Virus genome (UHGV): UHGV-2124252
Strand: one strand, 5' to 3'
DNA: 38,108 nucleotides
DNA from: a virus
Made by a program: the position numbers and the translations under genes. Shown here one piece after another: positions 8,300-14,957 of this stretch (its first letter is position 1; each line of letters opens with the position of its first letter). A model generated the notes under the pieces. It was not told the DNA's origin and ran no database searches. It saw only the letters and a list, made by a program, of their open reading frames with translations.

Positions 8300-9183
8300 C
8301 ACACACTCCTCGTCAGTATTCTGGCGGCCATTGCACTTAATCCCGGAGACATGCGGTTGAATGCTGTGCCGACGGCGTTAAGCTGCCCGGAAACGGTATC
8401 CAGAGCACCTGCAATATTTCTTTTGTCCACACCACTCAGCGCAGACTGTGCCTGCTGTACATACGTGGCTGCTTCGCTGGCTGTTCTGGCCAGACTGATG
8501 GCATCGGGCATGGATTCAGAGAGTGCGTTAAACGCCGGAACACTTTTCCCCAGAGCCCCGGAGATATTACCCAGTCCGCTCATCAGCCCCGGCACACGGG
8601 TCAGTGCGACAACGGGGTTATCCTTCATTTTCTGTGTCACCCGAACGGCGCTGATAGTGGTCTGGAGTACAGACTGCGCCTGTTTCGCATAGTTGACGCC
8701 GTTGCGGATGAACTGCGCCACCCCGGAAGGTGAAGGAATGGCACCGGAGACCGCCCCGACACCCGGGAGCTTCGTGCGTATTGCCGGTGGTTGCAGAGGA
8801 TTTTTCGGGTCACCGGTGTATTCCCGGAGAGACACGGTGGCACTGACAGCCAGCACGTTGCCGGTACTGTCAGTCTGCTCGCTGGTTGCAGTCACATCGG
8901 TAATCACGAACCAGCCGCGATAGTCACCGTTGCCGAAGACCAGCGCCAGTGCCTGATGGGCTTTCATGGCTGTTCGCAGTCTCGCCAGCTCCACATCGGG
9001 TACACAATAATGCTGATGGAAAACCAGAGTTATCTGGATTTCGTCCAGCCTGTCGCCGACGAACTGCAGGCCAGGCTTACCCCCGATGCGGGCATGCTCC
9101 GCATAATCGACGCCGAACGTGGCCTCGAAGCCGTCCCAGTAGGTAATCAGCTCAAACTCAATATCACCCAGTACGGCAAACAT
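8299..9183 (-). CDS. Tail protein, P2 gpU-like N-terminal domain (Mu DNA-circularisation protein N region)
   Basis: 294 aa directly downstream of tape measure gene with ATGA overlap; N-terminal pattern similar to gpU family. Confidence 0.55.
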   Translation of the reverse strand: MFAVLGDIEFELITYWDGFEATFGVDYAEHARIGGKPGLQFVGDRLDEIQITLVFHQHYCVPDVELARLRTAMKAHQALALVFGNGDYRGWFVITDVTATSEQTDSTGNVLAVSATVSLREYTGDPKNPLQPPAIRTKLPGVGAVSGAIPSPSGVAQFIRNGVNYAKQAQSVLQTTISAVRVTQKMKDNPVVALTRVPGLMSGLGNISGALGKSVPAFNALSESMPDAISLARTASEAATYVQQAQSALSGVDKRNIAGALDTVSGQLNAVGTAFNRMSPGLSAMAARILTRSV

Positions 9184-12134
9184 CAGCGGTACTCCTTACG
9201 TTGTTTCTGAGCCAGCAGACGCTCCAGCATTTTTTCCAGCTCATGCAGACTCATATTCAGGGCACCAGTCAGTCCTGCAGGCGCTGTGGTTTCCCTGCCA
9301 TTGAGGAAAAACTGAGGATTAAAGCTGACCTGGATACCACCAGACGTTCCACCGCCGGTTGCAGCTGCACCACGGCCTGAATATCCGGCAGCCAGGATTT
9401 CAGGCGAGGGGATACGGGGAACATCCGGTGTCATCTCATTTGCCAGACGTTGCCCTGGTAAAATCGATGCCCGGGTGGAGAGCGGAATAGCGGGCATGGA
9501 AGACAAACTATTGATTACGGCTCCGATCGCATTTTTAGCAGACGACATAAACCCATTGATATCGGGCAACGGCATACTGAAGCGAACACCTGAAGTGTTA
9601 TCCCGTATTTCTGGCCCCTGAATGCTCACGGGCATTTTGGGGAGCAGTTCACTGGCCATTCGCTGCCCGGCCAGAGCTGCAAGCGGAGTGGTCCGCTGCA
9701 GGCCAATGGCGGCCCCCTGCGCGATATTGTCACCAAAGCCCATAAACACGCGGCTCAGCGAATGAATGCCCAGCTTTTCGCTGAACCAGCCACTGATGCT
9801 GTCGCCCATTCCGGTTACACTGGATTTGAGCGACTCCCATTTGTTTTTGATACCGTTAATCAGACCATCGACAAGATGGCCACCGAAGTCGGTAAACTTT
9901 GCCGGCAGATCAACACCAAGATATTTCAGCGCAGCTGCAAAGGCTTTATAGAGCAGACCTGCCGGCGACCAGTTAATCAGCAGCTTACCAGTTCCCGCGA
10001 TACCGCCGTTAAAGGCTTCCTGAATGTCAGCCCAGCACTGTTTAAACCAGCTACTGATGCTGTCACCCATTCCGGTTACACTGGATTTGAGCGACCCCCA
10101 TTTGCTTTTGATACCGTTAATCAGACCGTCGATAAGATGGCCACCGAAGTCGGTGAACTTTGCCGGCAGAGCAACGCCGAAATATTTCAGCGCAGCCGCA
10201 AAGGCTTTATAGAGCAGGCCTGCCGGCGACCAGTTAATCAGCAACTTACCAGTTCCCACAATGCCGCCGTTAAAGGCTTCCTGAATGTCAGCCCAGCGCT
10301 GTTTAAACCAACCACTGACAGCCCCCCAGTTGCGGTAGATAAGGTAAGCTGCTGCCGCGACAGCGGTGATAACGAGACCGATGGGATTCATCATCAGCGC
10401 TCGCCCAATCCAGAGAACGGCACGTGCAGCGCTCATAAAACCGCGAACGAGGCTGCCCGCCAGAACTTTGCTGAGTTTCAGTCCTCCGCTGGTCAGTCGG
10501 CTGAATCCAGTGACAAGCCAGCGTAATTTGCCACCTTCTCCGAGTGCGGTAGTCAGTCGATGCCAGTTGGTCCGGAGTAAAACAGCATTTTTCCAGACAC
10601 TTACAAAGGGGGAAATAAGGAGATTCAGCCCCAGTTTGAGACCAACAGTCGCTATCTTAATCGCAAGGAGCGCACTGATGAGCTTAAAAGCCCCACTGAC
10701 AAATTGCGGGTGAGTCGCTACCCAGTGTTTTGCCCCCTGAATGAGTGGAAGCAGTTCCTGAGTCAAAGAAATAAAAGATGGAGCTAATTGATCGCCCAGC
10801 GTAATTGCCAGATCGCGACTGCTGACCATAAGTGTTTTAGTGGCTTCAAGGGGAGATTTCAGTCGCTGATCGTAAGCACTGGCAAGCAAATCGTTATCCG
10901 CAGCCCTGAGAGCACCGGCACGGATCTCTCGATATCTGTCCATGTTGGCCAGCATCGGGCGGATAAATGCCATGACCTGCATATCCGCGAACATATCACC
11001 CAGACCAAAGTTTTTCGCCAGAGCCTGAAGTGCCTCATCTCTTGCCGTATCATTCTTTATTTTCATGGCGGATTTGAAGCCGGCCAGCGCTTCGGGGCTT
11101 TTGGCATTGAGGTAACGTTCTATAACACTCAACATCCCTTCAATCGGAGAGATCCCCGCAGCCTTATAACTCGCAATAGATCCCTGCAAATCAATACCCA
11201 GATCAGCAAACTGTTTCTGAGTATCGCGGGCAAAAATTTTGGTAAGAAAGTTTTTAAAATTATTGGCTGCTTCGTCGGTGGAACCTGCACCGATTTTTGC
11301 TATCTGGAGACTGGCCCCGATTTCAGCAACAGCCTCTTTTCCACTGGCAATACCCGCCATCATTGGGGCCAGGGACTGCATCCACTTGACCTGATCCGGG
11401 ATTTCAAATGACCCCTGGTCACCGGCATAAGCCATAATATTCTGAACGGCACCAAAATCTCTGGCCGCACCTTTCAGGGAGTTTTGCCAGACTGCGGCCA
11501 CTTTTGCCCAGTCCTGAGCAGACGTGCGTGTTGCCGTTGTCGCGCGGGCAATATCCGGCATCAGAAAACCGATATCTGACACATTATCAATATTGTCGCT
11601 GATGAGTGAACCCACCGCCTCCTGCAGCTCATCCTGATACTGATTGTATTTAAGCGCCCAGCCTTTTATCTGTCCGGCAAGTGCATCCCGCGTTTTATTG
11701 TCATATTTTGCGGTGATCGACATATCAATCATTTTGTCCTGAAAAGACATGGACTGCTGAACGGCAGGGGAAACCGTATGATAAACAGTCTGTGCCATGC
11801 CATACGCTTCAATCCCCTGACCATACAGCGCCATGCGGTTAGCTTTCAGCGCATCACTGGTAGCGGATGCCGCTGACAGACGGCGCTGCTGGCGCTCAAT
11901 TTGCTCCATGGTGCGGCTTACCCGCAGCAGCTCGCTGTTGAGATGCTGCATCCGGGAAGAACCCAGTTGACCATAACGTTCTGTTGCACGGGTTAAAGCG
12001 TTCTGACGTTCCTGCAGGCGGCGTGAGGTATCGCTCAGGGAATCAAGCGCACGGCGGGTACCGCTCATTGCAGAACGGAATGTGCTGCCAATCATCCCGC
12101 CGATAACAACGCCGACTGAAAACTGTCCCGACAT
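9183..12134 (-). CDS. Tail tape measure protein
   Basis: 983 aa, helical N-terminus, hydrophobic central segments, internal 87-aa tandem duplication, follows frameshifted chaperone genes; GGAGG RBS. Confidence 0.9.
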   Translation of the reverse strand: MSGQFSVGVVIGGMIGSTFRSAMSGTRRALDSLSDTSRRLQERQNALTRATERYGQLGSSRMQHLNSELLRVSRTMEQIERQQRRLSAASATSDALKANRMALYGQGIEAYGMAQTVYHTVSPAVQQSMSFQDKMIDMSITAKYDNKTRDALAGQIKGWALKYNQYQDELQEAVGSLISDNIDNVSDIGFLMPDIARATTATRTSAQDWAKVAAVWQNSLKGAARDFGAVQNIMAYAGDQGSFEIPDQVKWMQSLAPMMAGIASGKEAVAEIGASLQIAKIGAGSTDEAANNFKNFLTKIFARDTQKQFADLGIDLQGSIASYKAAGISPIEGMLSVIERYLNAKSPEALAGFKSAMKIKNDTARDEALQALAKNFGLGDMFADMQVMAFIRPMLANMDRYREIRAGALRAADNDLLASAYDQRLKSPLEATKTLMVSSRDLAITLGDQLAPSFISLTQELLPLIQGAKHWVATHPQFVSGAFKLISALLAIKIATVGLKLGLNLLISPFVSVWKNAVLLRTNWHRLTTALGEGGKLRWLVTGFSRLTSGGLKLSKVLAGSLVRGFMSAARAVLWIGRALMMNPIGLVITAVAAAAYLIYRNWGAVSGWFKQRWADIQEAFNGGIVGTGKLLINWSPAGLLYKAFAAALKYFGVALPAKFTDFGGHLIDGLINGIKSKWGSLKSSVTGMGDSISSWFKQCWADIQEAFNGGIAGTGKLLINWSPAGLLYKAFAAALKYLGVDLPAKFTDFGGHLVDGLINGIKNKWESLKSSVTGMGDSISGWFSEKLGIHSLSRVFMGFGDNIAQGAAIGLQRTTPLAALAGQRMASELLPKMPVSIQGPEIRDNTSGVRFSMPLPDINGFMSSAKNAIGAVINSLSSMPAIPLSTRASILPGQRLANEMTPDVPRIPSPEILAAGYSGRGAAATGGGTSGGIQVSFNPQFFLNGRETTAPAGLTGALNMSLHELEKMLERLLAQKQRKEYR

Positions 12135-12209
12135 AGTGGTTAACCTCCGGGGAAGGTGAAAAGACGTGAGGGGATAACGCAGAACAGCCGCTACTGGCGG
12201 CTGTCTGTA

Positions 12210-12627
12210 CTATGATTTGTCGCCGTACTCGCTTTTGATTTGCTCTTCAGCCTGCTCCAGCCACATCTCCAGATCGTCAGTATCGAGGGCATCAATCTCC
12301 CCCGGCTGAAACCGGAACCATCTCGCCAGCAGCCCCTGCGCCTGCGTCAGCGCCCTGGTTGCTCTCACCCATCCCCGTGATGAGCTGAAATCGTTTCTGT
12401 AACTGCAGGTAATCAGCCAGATCCATATTGTCGAGATCCTCCGGGAGAAGACCAGTACTGCGGGCAATCAGCGGTTCGTCCCAGTCTGCCGGGTTTTTGC
12501 TGATTTTGCGCACCTGCTTCAGGTCTTTTACCGTCAGGCGTTTCAGTTCAACCAGCTCAATTCTGGTGCCTGCAGCAGTGGTGAAGGGATAAGACAATTT
12601 AAAAGTATCGGATGGGGTCTGTGACAT
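12210..12627 (-). CDS. Tail assembly chaperone, frameshift-extended form (predicted)
   Basis: Second ORF (12210..12467) is protein-like only in its last ~40 codons (…FQPGEIDALDTDDLEMWLEQAEEQIKSEYGDKS); it is in +1/-2 frame relative to the upstream ORF; run of five G (minus strand, 12299-12303) at the overlap. Confidence 0.5.
12292..12627 (-). CDS. Tail assembly chaperone, short form (P2 gpE / Mu gp41-like)
   Basis: 111 aa ORF immediately upstream of tape measure gene; overlapped at 3' end by second frame. Confidence 0.7.
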   Translation of the reverse strand: MSQTPSDTFKLSYPFTTAAGTRIELVELKRLTVKDLKQVRKISKNPADWDEPLIARSTGLLPEDLDNMDLADYLQLQKRFQLITGMGESNQGADAGAGAAGEMVPVSAGGD

Positions 12628-12724
12628 GATTGTGCTCCTGTGTAAGTTCAGGGCAGTATGTCGGGAGAAGCGCGTGACGGATATTAAAGGAGATTAAGAA
12701 GAAGGGGCCGGAGCCCCTGTGATG

Positions 12725-13006
12725 TCAGCAAGTGCGAAACCCCTTGCAGTTACGCAGGAAAGCGATGAGAAGCGTCTTTCCCTCAGATTTGCCGGTGCCG
12801 GAGAACCAGTGGTCGGGAGGCTCCCATGCTTCAATCAAATCCGCCAGTTTGCGGGCCTTTGAACGTGTGCAGTCAATCGGGTCATTGGTTTTACGGGTAT
12901 TAAAAAGGGTTTCCACCCCCGGAATATCAAGGAGGGTAAACCACGTACCATTTGACATGCCCAGTGCCGCACATCGTCCTCCTTTATCCGTCAGTTCAAC
13001 ACTCAC
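12725..13006 (-). CDS. Hypothetical protein (extra gene between tube and chaperone genes)
   Basis: 93 aa ORF, GTG start 2 nt after tube stop with GGGGG RBS; no recognisable family. Confidence 0.45.
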   Translation of the reverse strand: MSVELTDKGGRCAALGMSNGTWFTLLDIPGVETLFNTRKTNDPIDCTRSKARKLADLIEAWEPPDHWFSGTGKSEGKTLLIAFLRNCKGFRTC

Positions 13007-13008
13007 CG

Positions 13009-13530
13009 TCAGCCCCCGATATTGATACGGTAGTCAGTCAGTTGATCAACACCGCCGACCCGGAAGATGTTGGCCAGATAGTCCAGTTGCAGCAGCTCTT
13101 CACCATCCAGTACCTGTCTGATATACGTGCAGGTGAAGCTACTGGAGAACTCGGCGTTCTCGTGCTGTTTGAACGTCCCCAGCGGGTTCTTCTTGAACAT
13201 AATCGTCAGGAAGGTGACCAGCGGGATTTCGTCAATCAGCCCCTGCGAGCTGTAGCGCTGGACGCTGGAACGACACTGCAGTGCCAGCGACCTGTACGGG
13301 TTCGCGGCAGACAGCATCGCATCGCGGTAAAAGCTGTTCCATTTGATTTCGCCTTCCAGTTTGTCAAAACCAGCCGGGAGTTCCACCTTACCCACCATCC
13401 CCAGCGCCTTGTGTTCCTGCATAATCATGGAGACATCGGGGAGTTTAACTTCCTCAGCCCGTCCCAGCAGGTTAGTACCATCCAGATAGATGTTGGCATT
13501 CGTGATGCGGTTTATCTCAATCTTTGACAT
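13009..13530 (-). CDS. Major tail tube protein (P2 FII / Mu M-like)
   Basis: 173 aa, follows sheath gene with overlapping start/stop. Confidence 0.8.
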   Translation of the reverse strand: MSKIEINRITNANIYLDGTNLLGRAEEVKLPDVSMIMQEHKALGMVGKVELPAGFDKLEGEIKWNSFYRDAMLSAANPYRSLALQCRSSVQRYSSQGLIDEIPLVTFLTIMFKKNPLGTFKQHENAEFSSSFTCTYIRQVLDGEELLQLDYLANIFRVGGVDQLTDYRINIGG

Positions 13531-14957
13531 CAGTTGCCCCCTTTCAGGGTTAACAGGTATTCCGAGGTGATCTCAGTCTCAAACGTCAGTCGCTCCAGCG
13601 GCGGTGGTGGCGTATATTTGTAGCTCAGCAACAGGTGCCCGGCGGCCAGCTCCGTCTCCGGATTGCGGGCCGGATCAAACCAGCAACGGAAGCCCAGTAC
13701 CGCACCATCACCAGTCATTTTGCGACCGTAGGCGTTGACCGACTCCGTCAGTGCATCAATCAGCGCCTGAGTAATCGGCATGTCGATGTACTGCTGGCTG
13801 AAATAACGAATGGACTCGTTGATCACATCACCGGTGCGGCGAACGTTCTCAAAGTTACGCATATGGGTGACCGTTGGCCATGCTGCCGTCCGGTTACCCC
13901 ACAGACGAAGGCCGCTGCCGTAACTGCTGAATACCGTGGTGATCCCCTGTTCGTTAAGCAGGTTCACCTCACTCTGCGGGTCATCAATCATCGCGGACAG
14001 CTGGCGCTCCACGCCGGTGATCCCCAGAATCTCCTGATTGGAGGATGACCACCAGTAGCCCTTGTCCAGATCGACTCTGGCACGCAGACCTGCTGCACGC
14101 TGGCTGAGCGGCTCCAGACGCTCTGTGTTTGTCACCGGGTCATATACCTTCACATGCGGATAGCACAGACGGACGCGGTCGGAGCTGGTATTGAAGTTGA
14201 TGGTGCCTTCCGGGCCACGACCTGCCAGAGCCTGTGCAAAGGTGGTACCGACAGGCGCATCAATGTAGGTTACCGCGCCCAGCTTCTCTGCCATGGCGAT
14301 AAGCTCAACTGCGACACTCTTCTGGGTGCAGAACACCGGCGCAATCAGAATTTTGGCGAAATAGCCGTACAGGTTGAAGCTGTCGTTAAGCAGCTTCATG
14401 CCGGTTCGGTTTCCGGCGCTGTTCACCCCGCCGATGATGTCCGCCGCAGTCACCTTCGACGGGTCCGCGTACTCATAGCTCACCTTCACGCTGCCACCGG
14501 CCTCAATAGCCTTGCCCAGGTTCGTGAGCACACCCGCCTGCGCATCAACACGGTAGTCCGTGTTCGCCGTGTGGGTGGTGCTGCCTTCACTGTTTTTCAC
14601 CACCACATTAGCGACAACCGGATGCGCCAGTCTGGCCTGCCCTGTCGATTTGTCAAAGGTAACCACCTCATCCTCGATCGCCGTTTTATGTTTCGCCGGG
14701 TCGAGGACGTTAATGACCAGAACGGTGCCTGCACCATGGTCATAAATCGCATCCAGCGCCTGCGGAATGGTAAAGCCGGTGAACTGGCTGCCAAATGCCG
14801 CTGCGTCTTTCTCAGACAGGCACTGTACCAGCGTATTGACATCCCCCATCGGGGCGGTACCAATCAGGCCAATAACGGCAGATTTCACCGTTTTAACCGG
14901 GCGGGCACCGTTTTCCACCTCAATGGTTTCGGGACCATGCAGATAGTTAGCTGCCAT
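13530..14957 (-). CDS. Tail sheath protein (P2 FI / Mu L-like)
   Basis: 475 aa, position and size; contractile-tail module. Confidence 0.85.
   Translation of the reverse strand: MAANYLHGPETIEVENGARPVKTVKSAVIGLIGTAPMGDVNTLVQCLSEKDAAAFGSQFTGFTIPQALDAIYDHGAGTVLVINVLDPAKHKTAIEDEVVTFDKSTGQARLAHPVVANVVVKNSEGSTTHTANTDYRVDAQAGVLTNLGKAIEAGGSVKVSYEYADPSKVTAADIIGGVNSAGNRTGMKLLNDSFNLYGYFAKILIAPVFCTQKSVAVELIAMAEKLGAVTYIDAPVGTTFAQALAGRGPEGTINFNTSSDRVRLCYPHVKVYDPVTNTERLEPLSQRAAGLRARVDLDKGYWWSSSNQEILGITGVERQLSAMIDDPQSEVNLLNEQGITTVFSSYGSGLRLWGNRTAAWPTVTHMRNFENVRRTGDVINESIRYFSQQYIDMPITQALIDALTESVNAYGRKMTGDGAVLGFRCWFDPARNPETELAAGHLLLSYKYTPPPPLERLTFETEITSEYLLTLKGGN

Follow-up and report, generated by a model that had tools for sequence, protein, structure and literature searches.

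A conserved UUU_C motif as the probable site of a programmed +1 ribosomal frameshift in the tail-assembly chaperone gene of a BcepMu-like prophage

At which codon, and by what kind of slip, do ribosomes pass between the two overlapping reading frames that separate the tail tube gene from the tape measure gene in the virus genome UHGV-2124252? The window, by which we mean the whole stretch of 38,108 nucleotides (nt) analyzed here, is a BcepMu-like prophage with P2-type tails and is 100% identical to Escherichia phage PhiKM (PQ738613, genus Bcepmuvirus). Its short tail-assembly chaperone form, a gpE-like protein of 111 amino acids (aa), is encoded in the zero frame at 12292..12627 on the minus strand, as identified from the open reading frame (ORF) list, a PF10109 match and the PhiKM label 'tail protein E'. 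A second open frame overlaps this ORF and ends with a TAG at 12212-12210, being displaced by +1 (which equals -2) from the zero frame. The overlapping pair is flanked by the tube gene (13009-13530, minus strand) and the tape measure gene (9183..12134, minus strand), as in the lambda G/GT paradigm. A preliminary description of this DNA had already recognized the conserved chaperone-frameshift position just upstream of the tape measure gene, the ORF coordinates and overlap, and an offset of +1/-2 rather than -1, with all of which our reading of the coding strand agrees; its choice of slip site, a run of five G residues (G5) likened to that of phage Mu, is not retained below. Comparison with related loci indicates that the prophage almost certainly makes a long chaperone form through programmed ribosomal frameshifting. 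In our preferred reading, to which we give a probability of roughly 0.78, a +1 shift on a conserved CGA_UUU_C motif located ~85 bases upstream of the G5 run would yield a gpE+E'-like protein of 138 aa.

Two protein parts in two frames

Related loci (n=166) were drawn from GTDB genomes, INPHARED phages and IMG/VR; 161 of them, representing 124 unique sequences from the Escherichia/Klebsiella, Salmonella, Brenneria, Ralstonia, Pseudomonas and Burkholderia BcepMu lineages, exhibited the +1 geometry. The 111-aa short form matched PF10109 (Phage_TAC_7, 'E, or 41 or 14') over residues 8-81 with E=5.5e-21, and the predicted gpE+E'-like long form matched the same family with E=2.3e-22. The latter was obtained as a conceptual fusion spanning 12210..12627 (minus strand), in which codons 1-80 are read in the zero frame, the UUC at 12389-12387 is re-read and translation then follows the +1 frame. 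The E'-like extension appended in this manner comprises 58 aa and the TAG at 12210..12386 (minus strand), with the translation SSSRGWVRATRALTQAQGLLARWFRFQPGEIDALDTDDLEMWLEQAEEQIKSEYGDKS. Fusion at Phe80 gives a C-terminal part that reads ...LQLQKRF-SSSRGWVRATRALTQAQGLLARWFRFQPGEIDALDTDDLEMWLEQAEEQIKSEYGDKS, with the predicted junction ...LQLQKRF-SSSRGWVR..., including ...LQLQKRFSSSRGW..., and the +1 frame is predicted to release the tryptic peptides ALTQAQGLLAR, which is coded upstream of the G5 run, and FQPGEIDALDTDDLEMWLEQAEEQIK.

Judged by its sequence, the extension appears to be a relative of P2 E'. Its score on PF06528 (Phage_P2_GpE) was 18.4 bits, under the cut-off of 23, and it aligned to the E' of Pasteurella phage AFS-2018a with 44% identity over 36 aa (E=3e-10); the PF06528 score of this Pasteurella E' is 51 bits, and a lambda-like -1 slip on G_GGA_AAG gives access to it. 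Alignment of the fused product with the long forms of Mu and P2, suggested as a check in the preliminary description, gave a weak match to P2 E' (E=0.002) and no detectable similarity between the window and Mu long forms (BLASTP E=38). Among the NCBIfam models none matched the long form of the window, nor that of P2 (E+E'). The long forms are similar in size, with 138 aa in the window, 142 aa in P2, 145 aa in the Pasteurella phage and 152 aa in BcepMu. The distance from the proposed site to the LLARWF motif is ~19 codons in the window and 15-16 in the shorter Ralstonia- and Pseudomonas-type linkers, a spacing near that from G_GGA_AAG to LLARWF in the Pasteurella phage. Because the E'-like motif (LLARWFRFQPGEID... 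or LLLVLKIQPSEI...) occupied the +1 frame in 161 of the 166 loci, across six host lineages, the +1 geometry is a family trait. The overlap, whose conservation in related phages the preliminary description had left to be seen, is retained among them and is far more than chance would produce.

Position of the frame change

The shift position must follow the last stop codon of the +1 frame and precede the first stop codon of the zero frame. On the 5' side, Ralstonia- and Pseudomonas-type loci have a +1-frame TGA whose last base lies 9 nt ahead of the codon-80 UUC. On the 3' side, the zero frame is closed 72-75 nt after the UUU in the KP12 type and in L108, by a TAG 33 nt after it in L036/L037, which are 98% identical to the window and whose type of 90-aa truncated zero-frame allele (P0014) occurred on 914 contigs, and by a TAA only 27 nt after it in a diverged Salmonella-type clade (L154, L158 and L168, mutually different). 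If the site is homologous across the family, these sequences place it within a 36-nt interval around codon 80, from -9 to +27 nt.

The proposed site, CGA_UUU_C, is located at 12387..12393 (minus strand), with CGA at 12393-12391 as the E-site codon, the UUU of Phe80 at 12390-12388 as the P-site codon and the following C at 12387. Exactly one in-frame TTT_C was present in each locus's own allowed interval, in 161 of 161 loci and 124 of 124 unique sequences. The main contexts, counted in unique sequences, were CGA_TTT_CAG (72), CGA_TTT_CAA (16) and CGA_TTT_CTG (12), and those of other lineages were GTG_TTT_CGG (9), TCC_TTT_CGC (7) and GCC_TTT_CGC (4), with CGA_TTT_CAT, TCT_TTT_CGT, ACG_TTT_CAA and CGA_TTT_CTT as singletons. 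The next codon thus varies among CAG, CAA, CAT, CTG, CTT, CGG, CGC and CGT (Gln, His, Leu or Arg), its first base being C throughout, and Phe80 is never encoded by TTC in the 161 loci. Substitutions were counted by Fitch parsimony on a neighbor-joining tree of 76 unique enterobacterial sequences with 318 columns, in which the 8 nt CGATTTCA showed zero substitutions and formed the longest invariant run; the next-longest runs reached 5 nt and contain Trp or Met codons, and upstream zero-frame wobble sites exhibited a mean of 7.8 substitutions. Codon bias does not account for the invariance of TTT_C, because the GC-rich lineages use TTT less often than TTC for Phe (19 TTT vs 87 TTC in BcepMu genes, 12 vs 82 in Burkholderia-type loci) and in no lineage does TTT followed by C exceed 4-13% of the Phe codons. 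A second conserved Phe of the same gene, in the PFT[TS]A motif, served as the control instead of a -1 group, as a scan of IMG/VR with the Pasteurella chaperone had returned near-identical loci only; it was encoded 61 times by TTC and 25 times by TTT.

The same tree revealed a switch of selective constraint. Over the 144 nt upstream of the site, substitutions at zero-frame positions 1/2/3 numbered 92/48/376, the phase of a zero-frame coding sequence; between nt 3 and 29, counted from the first T of TTT, they were 46/20/42, a mixed zone; between nt 30 and 95, still inside the overlap, they were 127/45/32; and beyond the zero-frame stop they were 146/45/42. Since position 1 of the zero frame is the wobble position of the +1 frame, it is the +1 frame that comes under constraint soon after codon 80. 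On these counts purifying selection acts on the +1 frame from about 60-95 nt before the zero-frame stop, and thus over a minimum of ~65 nt at the end of the overlap, the G5 run included; the earlier description of a downstream frame that becomes protein-like only once the overlap has ended is not borne out. Within the mixed zone the +1-frame Gly-Trp pair is invariant as GGN_TGG, where N is A, C or G, changes that are silent in the +1 frame and exchange Met, Leu and Val in the zero frame; a mixed pattern of this kind is to be anticipated where the same bases code for both products.

Two further features were observed around the motif. In Pseudomonas-type loci (L015, L113-L122), an element resembling a Shine-Dalgarno (SD) sequence, GAGGUG or GGGGUG, stands right before UUU_CGG in the manner of the prfB stimulator; neither the window nor any of the other lineages has it. 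The site CGAUUUC is also complementary to GAGAUUG, formed by the Glu-Ile-Asp codons of E' (about 12292-12298) ~90 nt downstream, and single-sequence folds pair the two; this pairing is lost in Brenneria-type sequences, was not reported by RNAalifold and is probably due to chance.

Proposed mechanism and competing explanations

According to the preferred reading, the majority of ribosomes would remain in the zero frame until the TGA at 12294-12292 and produce the 111-aa gpE-like chaperone, and a minority would shift by +1 with codon 80 (UUU, Phe) in the P site. The peptidyl-tRNAPhe (anticodon GAA) would leave UUU and re-pair with the overlapping UUC at 12389-12387, exchanging a G.U wobble for a G-C pair, and decoding would resume at AGC in the +1 frame and proceed to the TAG at 12212-12210, giving a product made of the chaperone domain (residues 1-80) and the 58-aa P2 E'-like extension. 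The slip of tRNAPhe(GAA) from UUU to UUC is the only re-pairing that the conserved bases permit, as a -2 shift would need GAU or CCU, which is impossible. The event would thus be ribosomal and due to slippage of the P-site tRNAPhe, presumably at a low efficiency of a few per cent or less. Fu and Parker in 1994 and Schwartz and Curran in 1997 reportedly found that 'UUU-pyrimidine' sites in E. coli shift readily by +1. At prfB, +1 shifting increases when E-site pairing is weak, and CGA is read via an I.A wobble; the E-site codon, CGA in the enterobacterial lineages, may modulate the shift. Reasoning from lambda G/GT and P2 E/E+E', one would expect the short and the long form alike to associate with the tape measure protein, the extension to bring in the tube protein, and the virion to contain neither form; the two products would probably act as lambda G and GT do, and the prophages with truncated zero frames are presumably functional.

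Several points weigh against this reading. The support for the shift comes entirely from sequence comparison, and the sequences share common ancestry, so their counts do not equal independent events. The A-site codon of the window, CAG, is neither rare nor a stop codon; there is no SD-like element upstream of the site in the window (CAGAAACGA); and RNAalifold, applied to 25 diverse sequences, detected no structure in the first 60 nt downstream, only weak, non-significant pairing beyond these, and no conserved structure within ~100 nt. None of these features, nor any other that we found, accounts for an efficiency above the background slipperiness of UUU_C. Phe80 is invariant as a residue of the chaperone domain, which accounts for the conservation of TT but leaves the third T and the next C unexplained. 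Within the mixed zone, the pattern at Thr84 (ACG/ACT/ACC) favors the zero frame, and as this zone covers nt 3-29, the selection analysis alone places the shift to ~30 nt at best. Finally, the tightest 3' bound depends on prophages with truncated alleles that are assumed to be functional.

The slip site advanced in the preliminary description, the G5 run at 12299..12303 (minus strand), is indeed present near the zero-frame end, just before the TGA. The zero frame closes on the coding strand as ...GAG ATG GTT CCG GTT TCA GCC GGG GGA GAT TGA and the +1 frame reads the same stretch as ...AGA TGG TTC CGG TTT CAG CCG GGG GAG ATT GAT.... A shift on GCC_GGG_GGA_GAU_UGA, either a Mu-like -2 (GGA to GGG) or a +1 (GGG to GGG), would produce the junction ...VSAG(G)EIDALD... 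and the peptide ...MVPVSAGGEIDALDTDDLEMW.... Re-pairing on the run is chemically possible in both directions, a stop codon follows two codons later, and the proven -2 site of Mu is likewise a G5; the statement that Mu uses a -2 shift is itself correct (GenBank AF083977, 'verified -2 translational frameshift'; PMC5009743). The relatives, however, speak against the run. GAG GTG GTT TAG closes the zero frame 21 nt before G5 in KP12, in prophages of Mixta, Pantoea, Pseudocitrobacter and Intestinirhabdus and in the majority of relatives from IMG/VR, and zero-frame ribosomes therefore never reach the run in them; the 90-aa and 84-aa zero-frame alleles stop even earlier, ~60 nt before it, and in BcepMu the zero frame stops ahead of the entire EVLLLVLKIQPSEI (LLLVLKIQPSEI) motif. 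The run is not conserved, being replaced in other relatives by CCTGTGG, CCGGGTG, CCAGGGG or CCGAGTG and lost in L004, L077, L080, the Brenneria, Salmonella and Ralstonia types and BcepMu. It also lies inside the +1-constrained region: within the RWFRF codons the window and KP12 differ at three points, each of them silent in the +1 frame, whereas in the zero frame they exchange Met/Val, Pro/stop and Val/Ile. A junction at G5 would moreover remove LLARWFRFQP from the E' motif, a conserved stretch that can be aligned with both PF06528 and the Pasteurella E'. The analogy with Mu fares no better, given the dissimilar long forms, a P2-like tail module (FI-FII-E-T-U-X-D) and the impossibility of -2 re-pairing at the conserved site, and we regard a shift on G5 as highly improbable. 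The run does act as a hotspot at which 1-nt deletions or errors join the frames: one G is missing from it in L009 (Erwinia tracheiphila) and L092, whose frames are fused, and in several (P0003-P0005) of the fused single-ORF database proteins (P0001-P0011, those of 138 aa included), whose junctions lie at various places and many of which come from long-read or read-archive assemblies. Such fused versions are most likely homopolymer indel errors or dead prophages and uninformative on the junction.

A programmed +1 shift might also occur elsewhere in the ~36-75 nt allowed interval, or proceed without tRNAPhe slippage, through an out-of-frame incoming tRNA or at a lineage-specific site such as ACG_GGG_A. 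The selection signal remains mixed up to ~27 nt after the UUU and some lineages possess short G runs there (ACG_GGG_A in the window, GGC_GGG_GGA in Ralstonia), which leaves room for this alternative; yet no other shift-prone motif is common to all lineages, G runs are entirely missing from the Salmonella-type interval, the UUU wobble base and the next C are invariant among variable wobble positions nearby, and the tight bounds of -9 to +27 nt leave few alternatives, for which reasons we hold it to be unlikely. That the +1-frame segment is instead translated alone as a small protein, with no frameshift, is suggested by the GenBank record of BcepMu gp42, which starts at an internal ATG, by a GTG in the +1 frame of the window at the Trp-Val position, and by a stand-alone 85-aa ORF in the ORF list, for which gene callers use a TTG at 12467. 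This option is opposed by the want of a conserved start-like codon, the best position being filled in 37 of 76 sequences and four sequences having none between the site and the motif; by the opening of the +1 frame just 9 nt before the UUC in the Ralstonia and Pseudomonas lineages; and by the production of the extension as a fusion in all characterized homologs, namely P2 E+E', lambda GT and Mu (PMC3091744, PMC5009743). An internal start is in our estimation very unlikely. Barely credible, lastly, is a frame change that arises in the RNA through slippage during transcription of a homopolymer, or an overlap that is a functionless, decaying remnant, even though fused-frame database proteins exist and homopolymers (T3, G4 and G5) are present. 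Transcriptional slippage in bacteria is known to require A/T homopolymers of about 8 or more residues, and the longest run here is G5; the scattered junctions of the fused proteins are typical of indel errors, and strong purifying selection on both parts in six host lineages opposes decay.

In KP12-type loci (L002-L008, L012 and many from IMG/VR), the commonest allele ends the zero frame, at about window positions 12310-12325, with GAGGUG_GUU_UAG_A, in which an SD-like element is followed by a codon ending in U and by a stop codon; the window carries CCG instead of that stop. This superficially RF2-like (prfB) sequence could give zero-frame ribosomes a second chance into the +1 frame. As the shift site itself it was set aside, being absent from the window and from the Brenneria, Salmonella and Ralstonia types and lying downstream of the onset of +1 constraint, with poor re-pairing of tRNAVal on UUU. 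The G4 runs (GCA_GGG_GCU and ACG_GGG_A) were likewise discarded as +1 sites, as they are absent in the Salmonella type and a comparison of L003 with the window places +1 selection already upstream of the first.

Genomic setting and known systems

Prophage DNA identical to PhiKM was present in 641 of 5426 complete E. coli genomes. The PhiKM record shows Mu-like head genes and a tail operon of sheath FI, tube FII, a hypothetical protein, 'tail protein E', tape measure, U, X and D. In the window the sheath gene lies at 13530-14957 and is followed by the P2 FII-like tube gene mentioned above, the operon neighbor upstream of the chaperone (in the ORF list, and 'tail tube protein FII' in PhiKM), both on the minus strand. 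Between the tube and chaperone genes there is a 93-aa ORF (12725-13006, minus strand), a 'hypothetical protein' in PhiKM, KP12 and RefSeq that has no counterpart in the P2 order FI-FII-E. Between this ORF and the chaperone start codon we observed a terminator-like hairpin, AGGGGCTCCGGCCCCT followed by TCTTCTTAAT (12703-12718, minus strand), which falls inside what is expected to be a single tail operon. A second hairpin, CAGCCGC-cagta-GCGGCTG followed by TTCTG (12185-12203, minus strand), occupies the 75-nt gap from the E' stop to the tape measure start; its stem is kept in KP12 with a different loop, the terminator scan did not list it, and it could be an attenuator or an mRNA-stability element. 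The tape measure gene directly downstream encodes 983 aa and is annotated as such in PhiKM and RefSeq. It contains a 261-nt tandem duplication (2.0 copies, 92% identical; 9784-10318, minus strand) that duplicates an 87-aa segment, and it has a sequencing gap in the PhiKM GenBank record and is an incomplete pseudogene in the RefSeq copy of E. coli SK1144. The repeat may be behind these assembly and annotation troubles and, if its copy number varies, tail length would change.

The long chaperone form and the shift site are missing from the PhiKM, KP12 and RefSeq annotations; PGAP/RefSeq labels the E. coli copies 'phage tail assembly protein' only, with no call for the second frame. In the BcepMu record (L018, AY539836, 6603-7364), gp42 is given as the lambda G analog and gp43 as its slippage product (T). 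By homology, G and T look misassigned there: gp41 would be the E-type chaperone, and the C-terminal part of gp42 the +1-frame E' extension reached from TCC_TTT_CGC. Records of this kind could be mended by a simple annotation rule, namely a PF10109 gene with an in-frame TTT_C at the last conserved Phe and an E' motif in the +1 frame. In any engineering of these prophages or of derived tailocins, the site and both frames would have to stay intact.

Among characterized systems, the nearest likeness is to P2 E/E+E'. The gene position within the P2-type operon FI-FII-E-T-U-D is the same, the N-terminal PF10109 domain is shared, the extension appears related to PF06528/E', and the product sizes are comparable (111/138 aa in the window, 91/142 aa in P2; PMC3091744). 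In both cases the slip codon, in the window the proposed one, is a UUU for Phe that coincides with the C-terminal edge of PF10109, P2 Phe84 (GGT_TTT_TTG) and the Phe80 of the window being ~3 profile positions apart, and a stimulatory RNA structure is lacking in P2 (PMC3091744) and was not found here by RNAalifold. The differences are that P2 shifts by -1 on the heptamer T_TTT_TTG, whereas the window lacks such a heptamer and would shift by +1 on the tetranucleotide UUU_C; that the overlap from the site to the zero-frame stop is about 95 nt here vs about 20 nt in P2; and that the window has a PF06528 score below the Pfam cut-off and the extra 93-aa ORF between the tube and chaperone genes.

With respect to the motif itself, the closest parallel is PA-X of influenza A virus, whose +1 shift at UCC_UUU_CGU was proven by mass spectrometry and takes place with 0.7-1.3% efficiency and no other stimulator; its authors expected UUU_C sites to form a class in which the choice of A- and E-site codons is restricted (PMC3498833). 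Amalgaviruses have UUU_CGN as their motif, and the class includes fijiviruses and chronic bee paralysis virus (PMC5052127). The locus studied here resembles PA-X in its P-site UUU followed by C, with tRNAPhe re-pairing on UUC possible, in the lack of a downstream structure or other evident stimulator and in the extreme conservation of the motif, synonymous positions included; the BcepMu/Burkholderia lineage even has TCC_TTT_CGC or TCT_TTT_CGT, and the Pseudomonas lineage GTG_TTT_CGG. It differs in that the window and enterobacterial lineages have CAG, CAA, CAT or CTG in the A site, CGN being restricted to Pseudomonas (CGG) and Burkholderia (CGC/CGT), in the E-site CGA in place of UCC, in the bacterial ribosomes and the DNA phage, in an unrelated product and function, and in that the shift is here deduced from comparative data. 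A further parallel is provided by the haloviruses of the HF1 group, in which TTT_CGC within a perfectly conserved 15-bp block was proposed as the +1 site of the tail chaperone (PMC7230728). They share with the window two ORFs between the tube and tape measure genes, the same role, direction and core motif, and an argument from conservation, and differ as archaeal viruses.

The remaining systems share the logic of the locus more than its motif. The -2 shift of Mu, with an efficiency of ~2.2% according to Xu et al. 2004 as that work is cited in Atkins 2016 (PMC5009743) and Firth et al. 2012 (PMC3498833), generates gp41/gp41-42, a myovirus chaperone encoded upstream of the tape measure gene, with the second frame at +1/-2 and a transposable-phage backbone. 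In contrast to the proposed +1 slip, Mu slips back two bases on its G5 before a rare CGA codon (CGG_GGG_CGA, with an overlap of only 35 nt), whereas the G5 of the window stands in another codon register, GCC_GGG_GGA, and is not conserved. Lambda G/GT offers the general two-product logic, a fixed low long-to-short ratio being needed for tail assembly (PMC5009743), and its exact G_GGA_AAG is used by the related P2-like Pasteurella phage; direction and motif (-1 at G_GGA_AAG) differ. Unlike in prfB (RF2), the A site holds a sense codon in all lineages, and GAGGUG is directly upstream in the Pseudomonas lineage only.

We lean moderately towards the broader view that the gpE+E'-type chaperone of BcepMu-like phages, in beta- and gamma-proteobacteria alike, is made through a UUU_C +1 frameshift that resembles PA-X and needs no stimulator. 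If so, this would be the first bacterial use of the UUU_C motif class, none being reported in the literature searched, in which we also found no description of a shift site in BcepMu-like phages; it would add a bacterial member, supported by comparative genomics, to a +1 class proven elsewhere only in eukaryotic viruses. A homologous chaperone family would have switched slip direction, from the -1 of P2 on U_UUU_UUG to +1 on UUU_C, with the Phe codon at nearly the same place, and the invariant, inosine-decoded CGA in the E site would be the enterobacterial stand-in for an A-site CGN or E-site UCC context. CGA_UUU_CAG, GUG_UUU_CGG and UCC_UUU_CGC form a natural series of E- and A-site contexts. 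The conserved chaperone frameshift as such is well established, and different phages are known to use -1, -2 or +1 (PMC5009743); what is mildly new here is the apparent bacterial use of the PA-X-type motif and the change of slip direction within the P2 E/E' family. That homologous chaperones would reach their two products by -1, -2 or +1 reinforces the view that the product ratio, and not the mechanism, is the selected trait.

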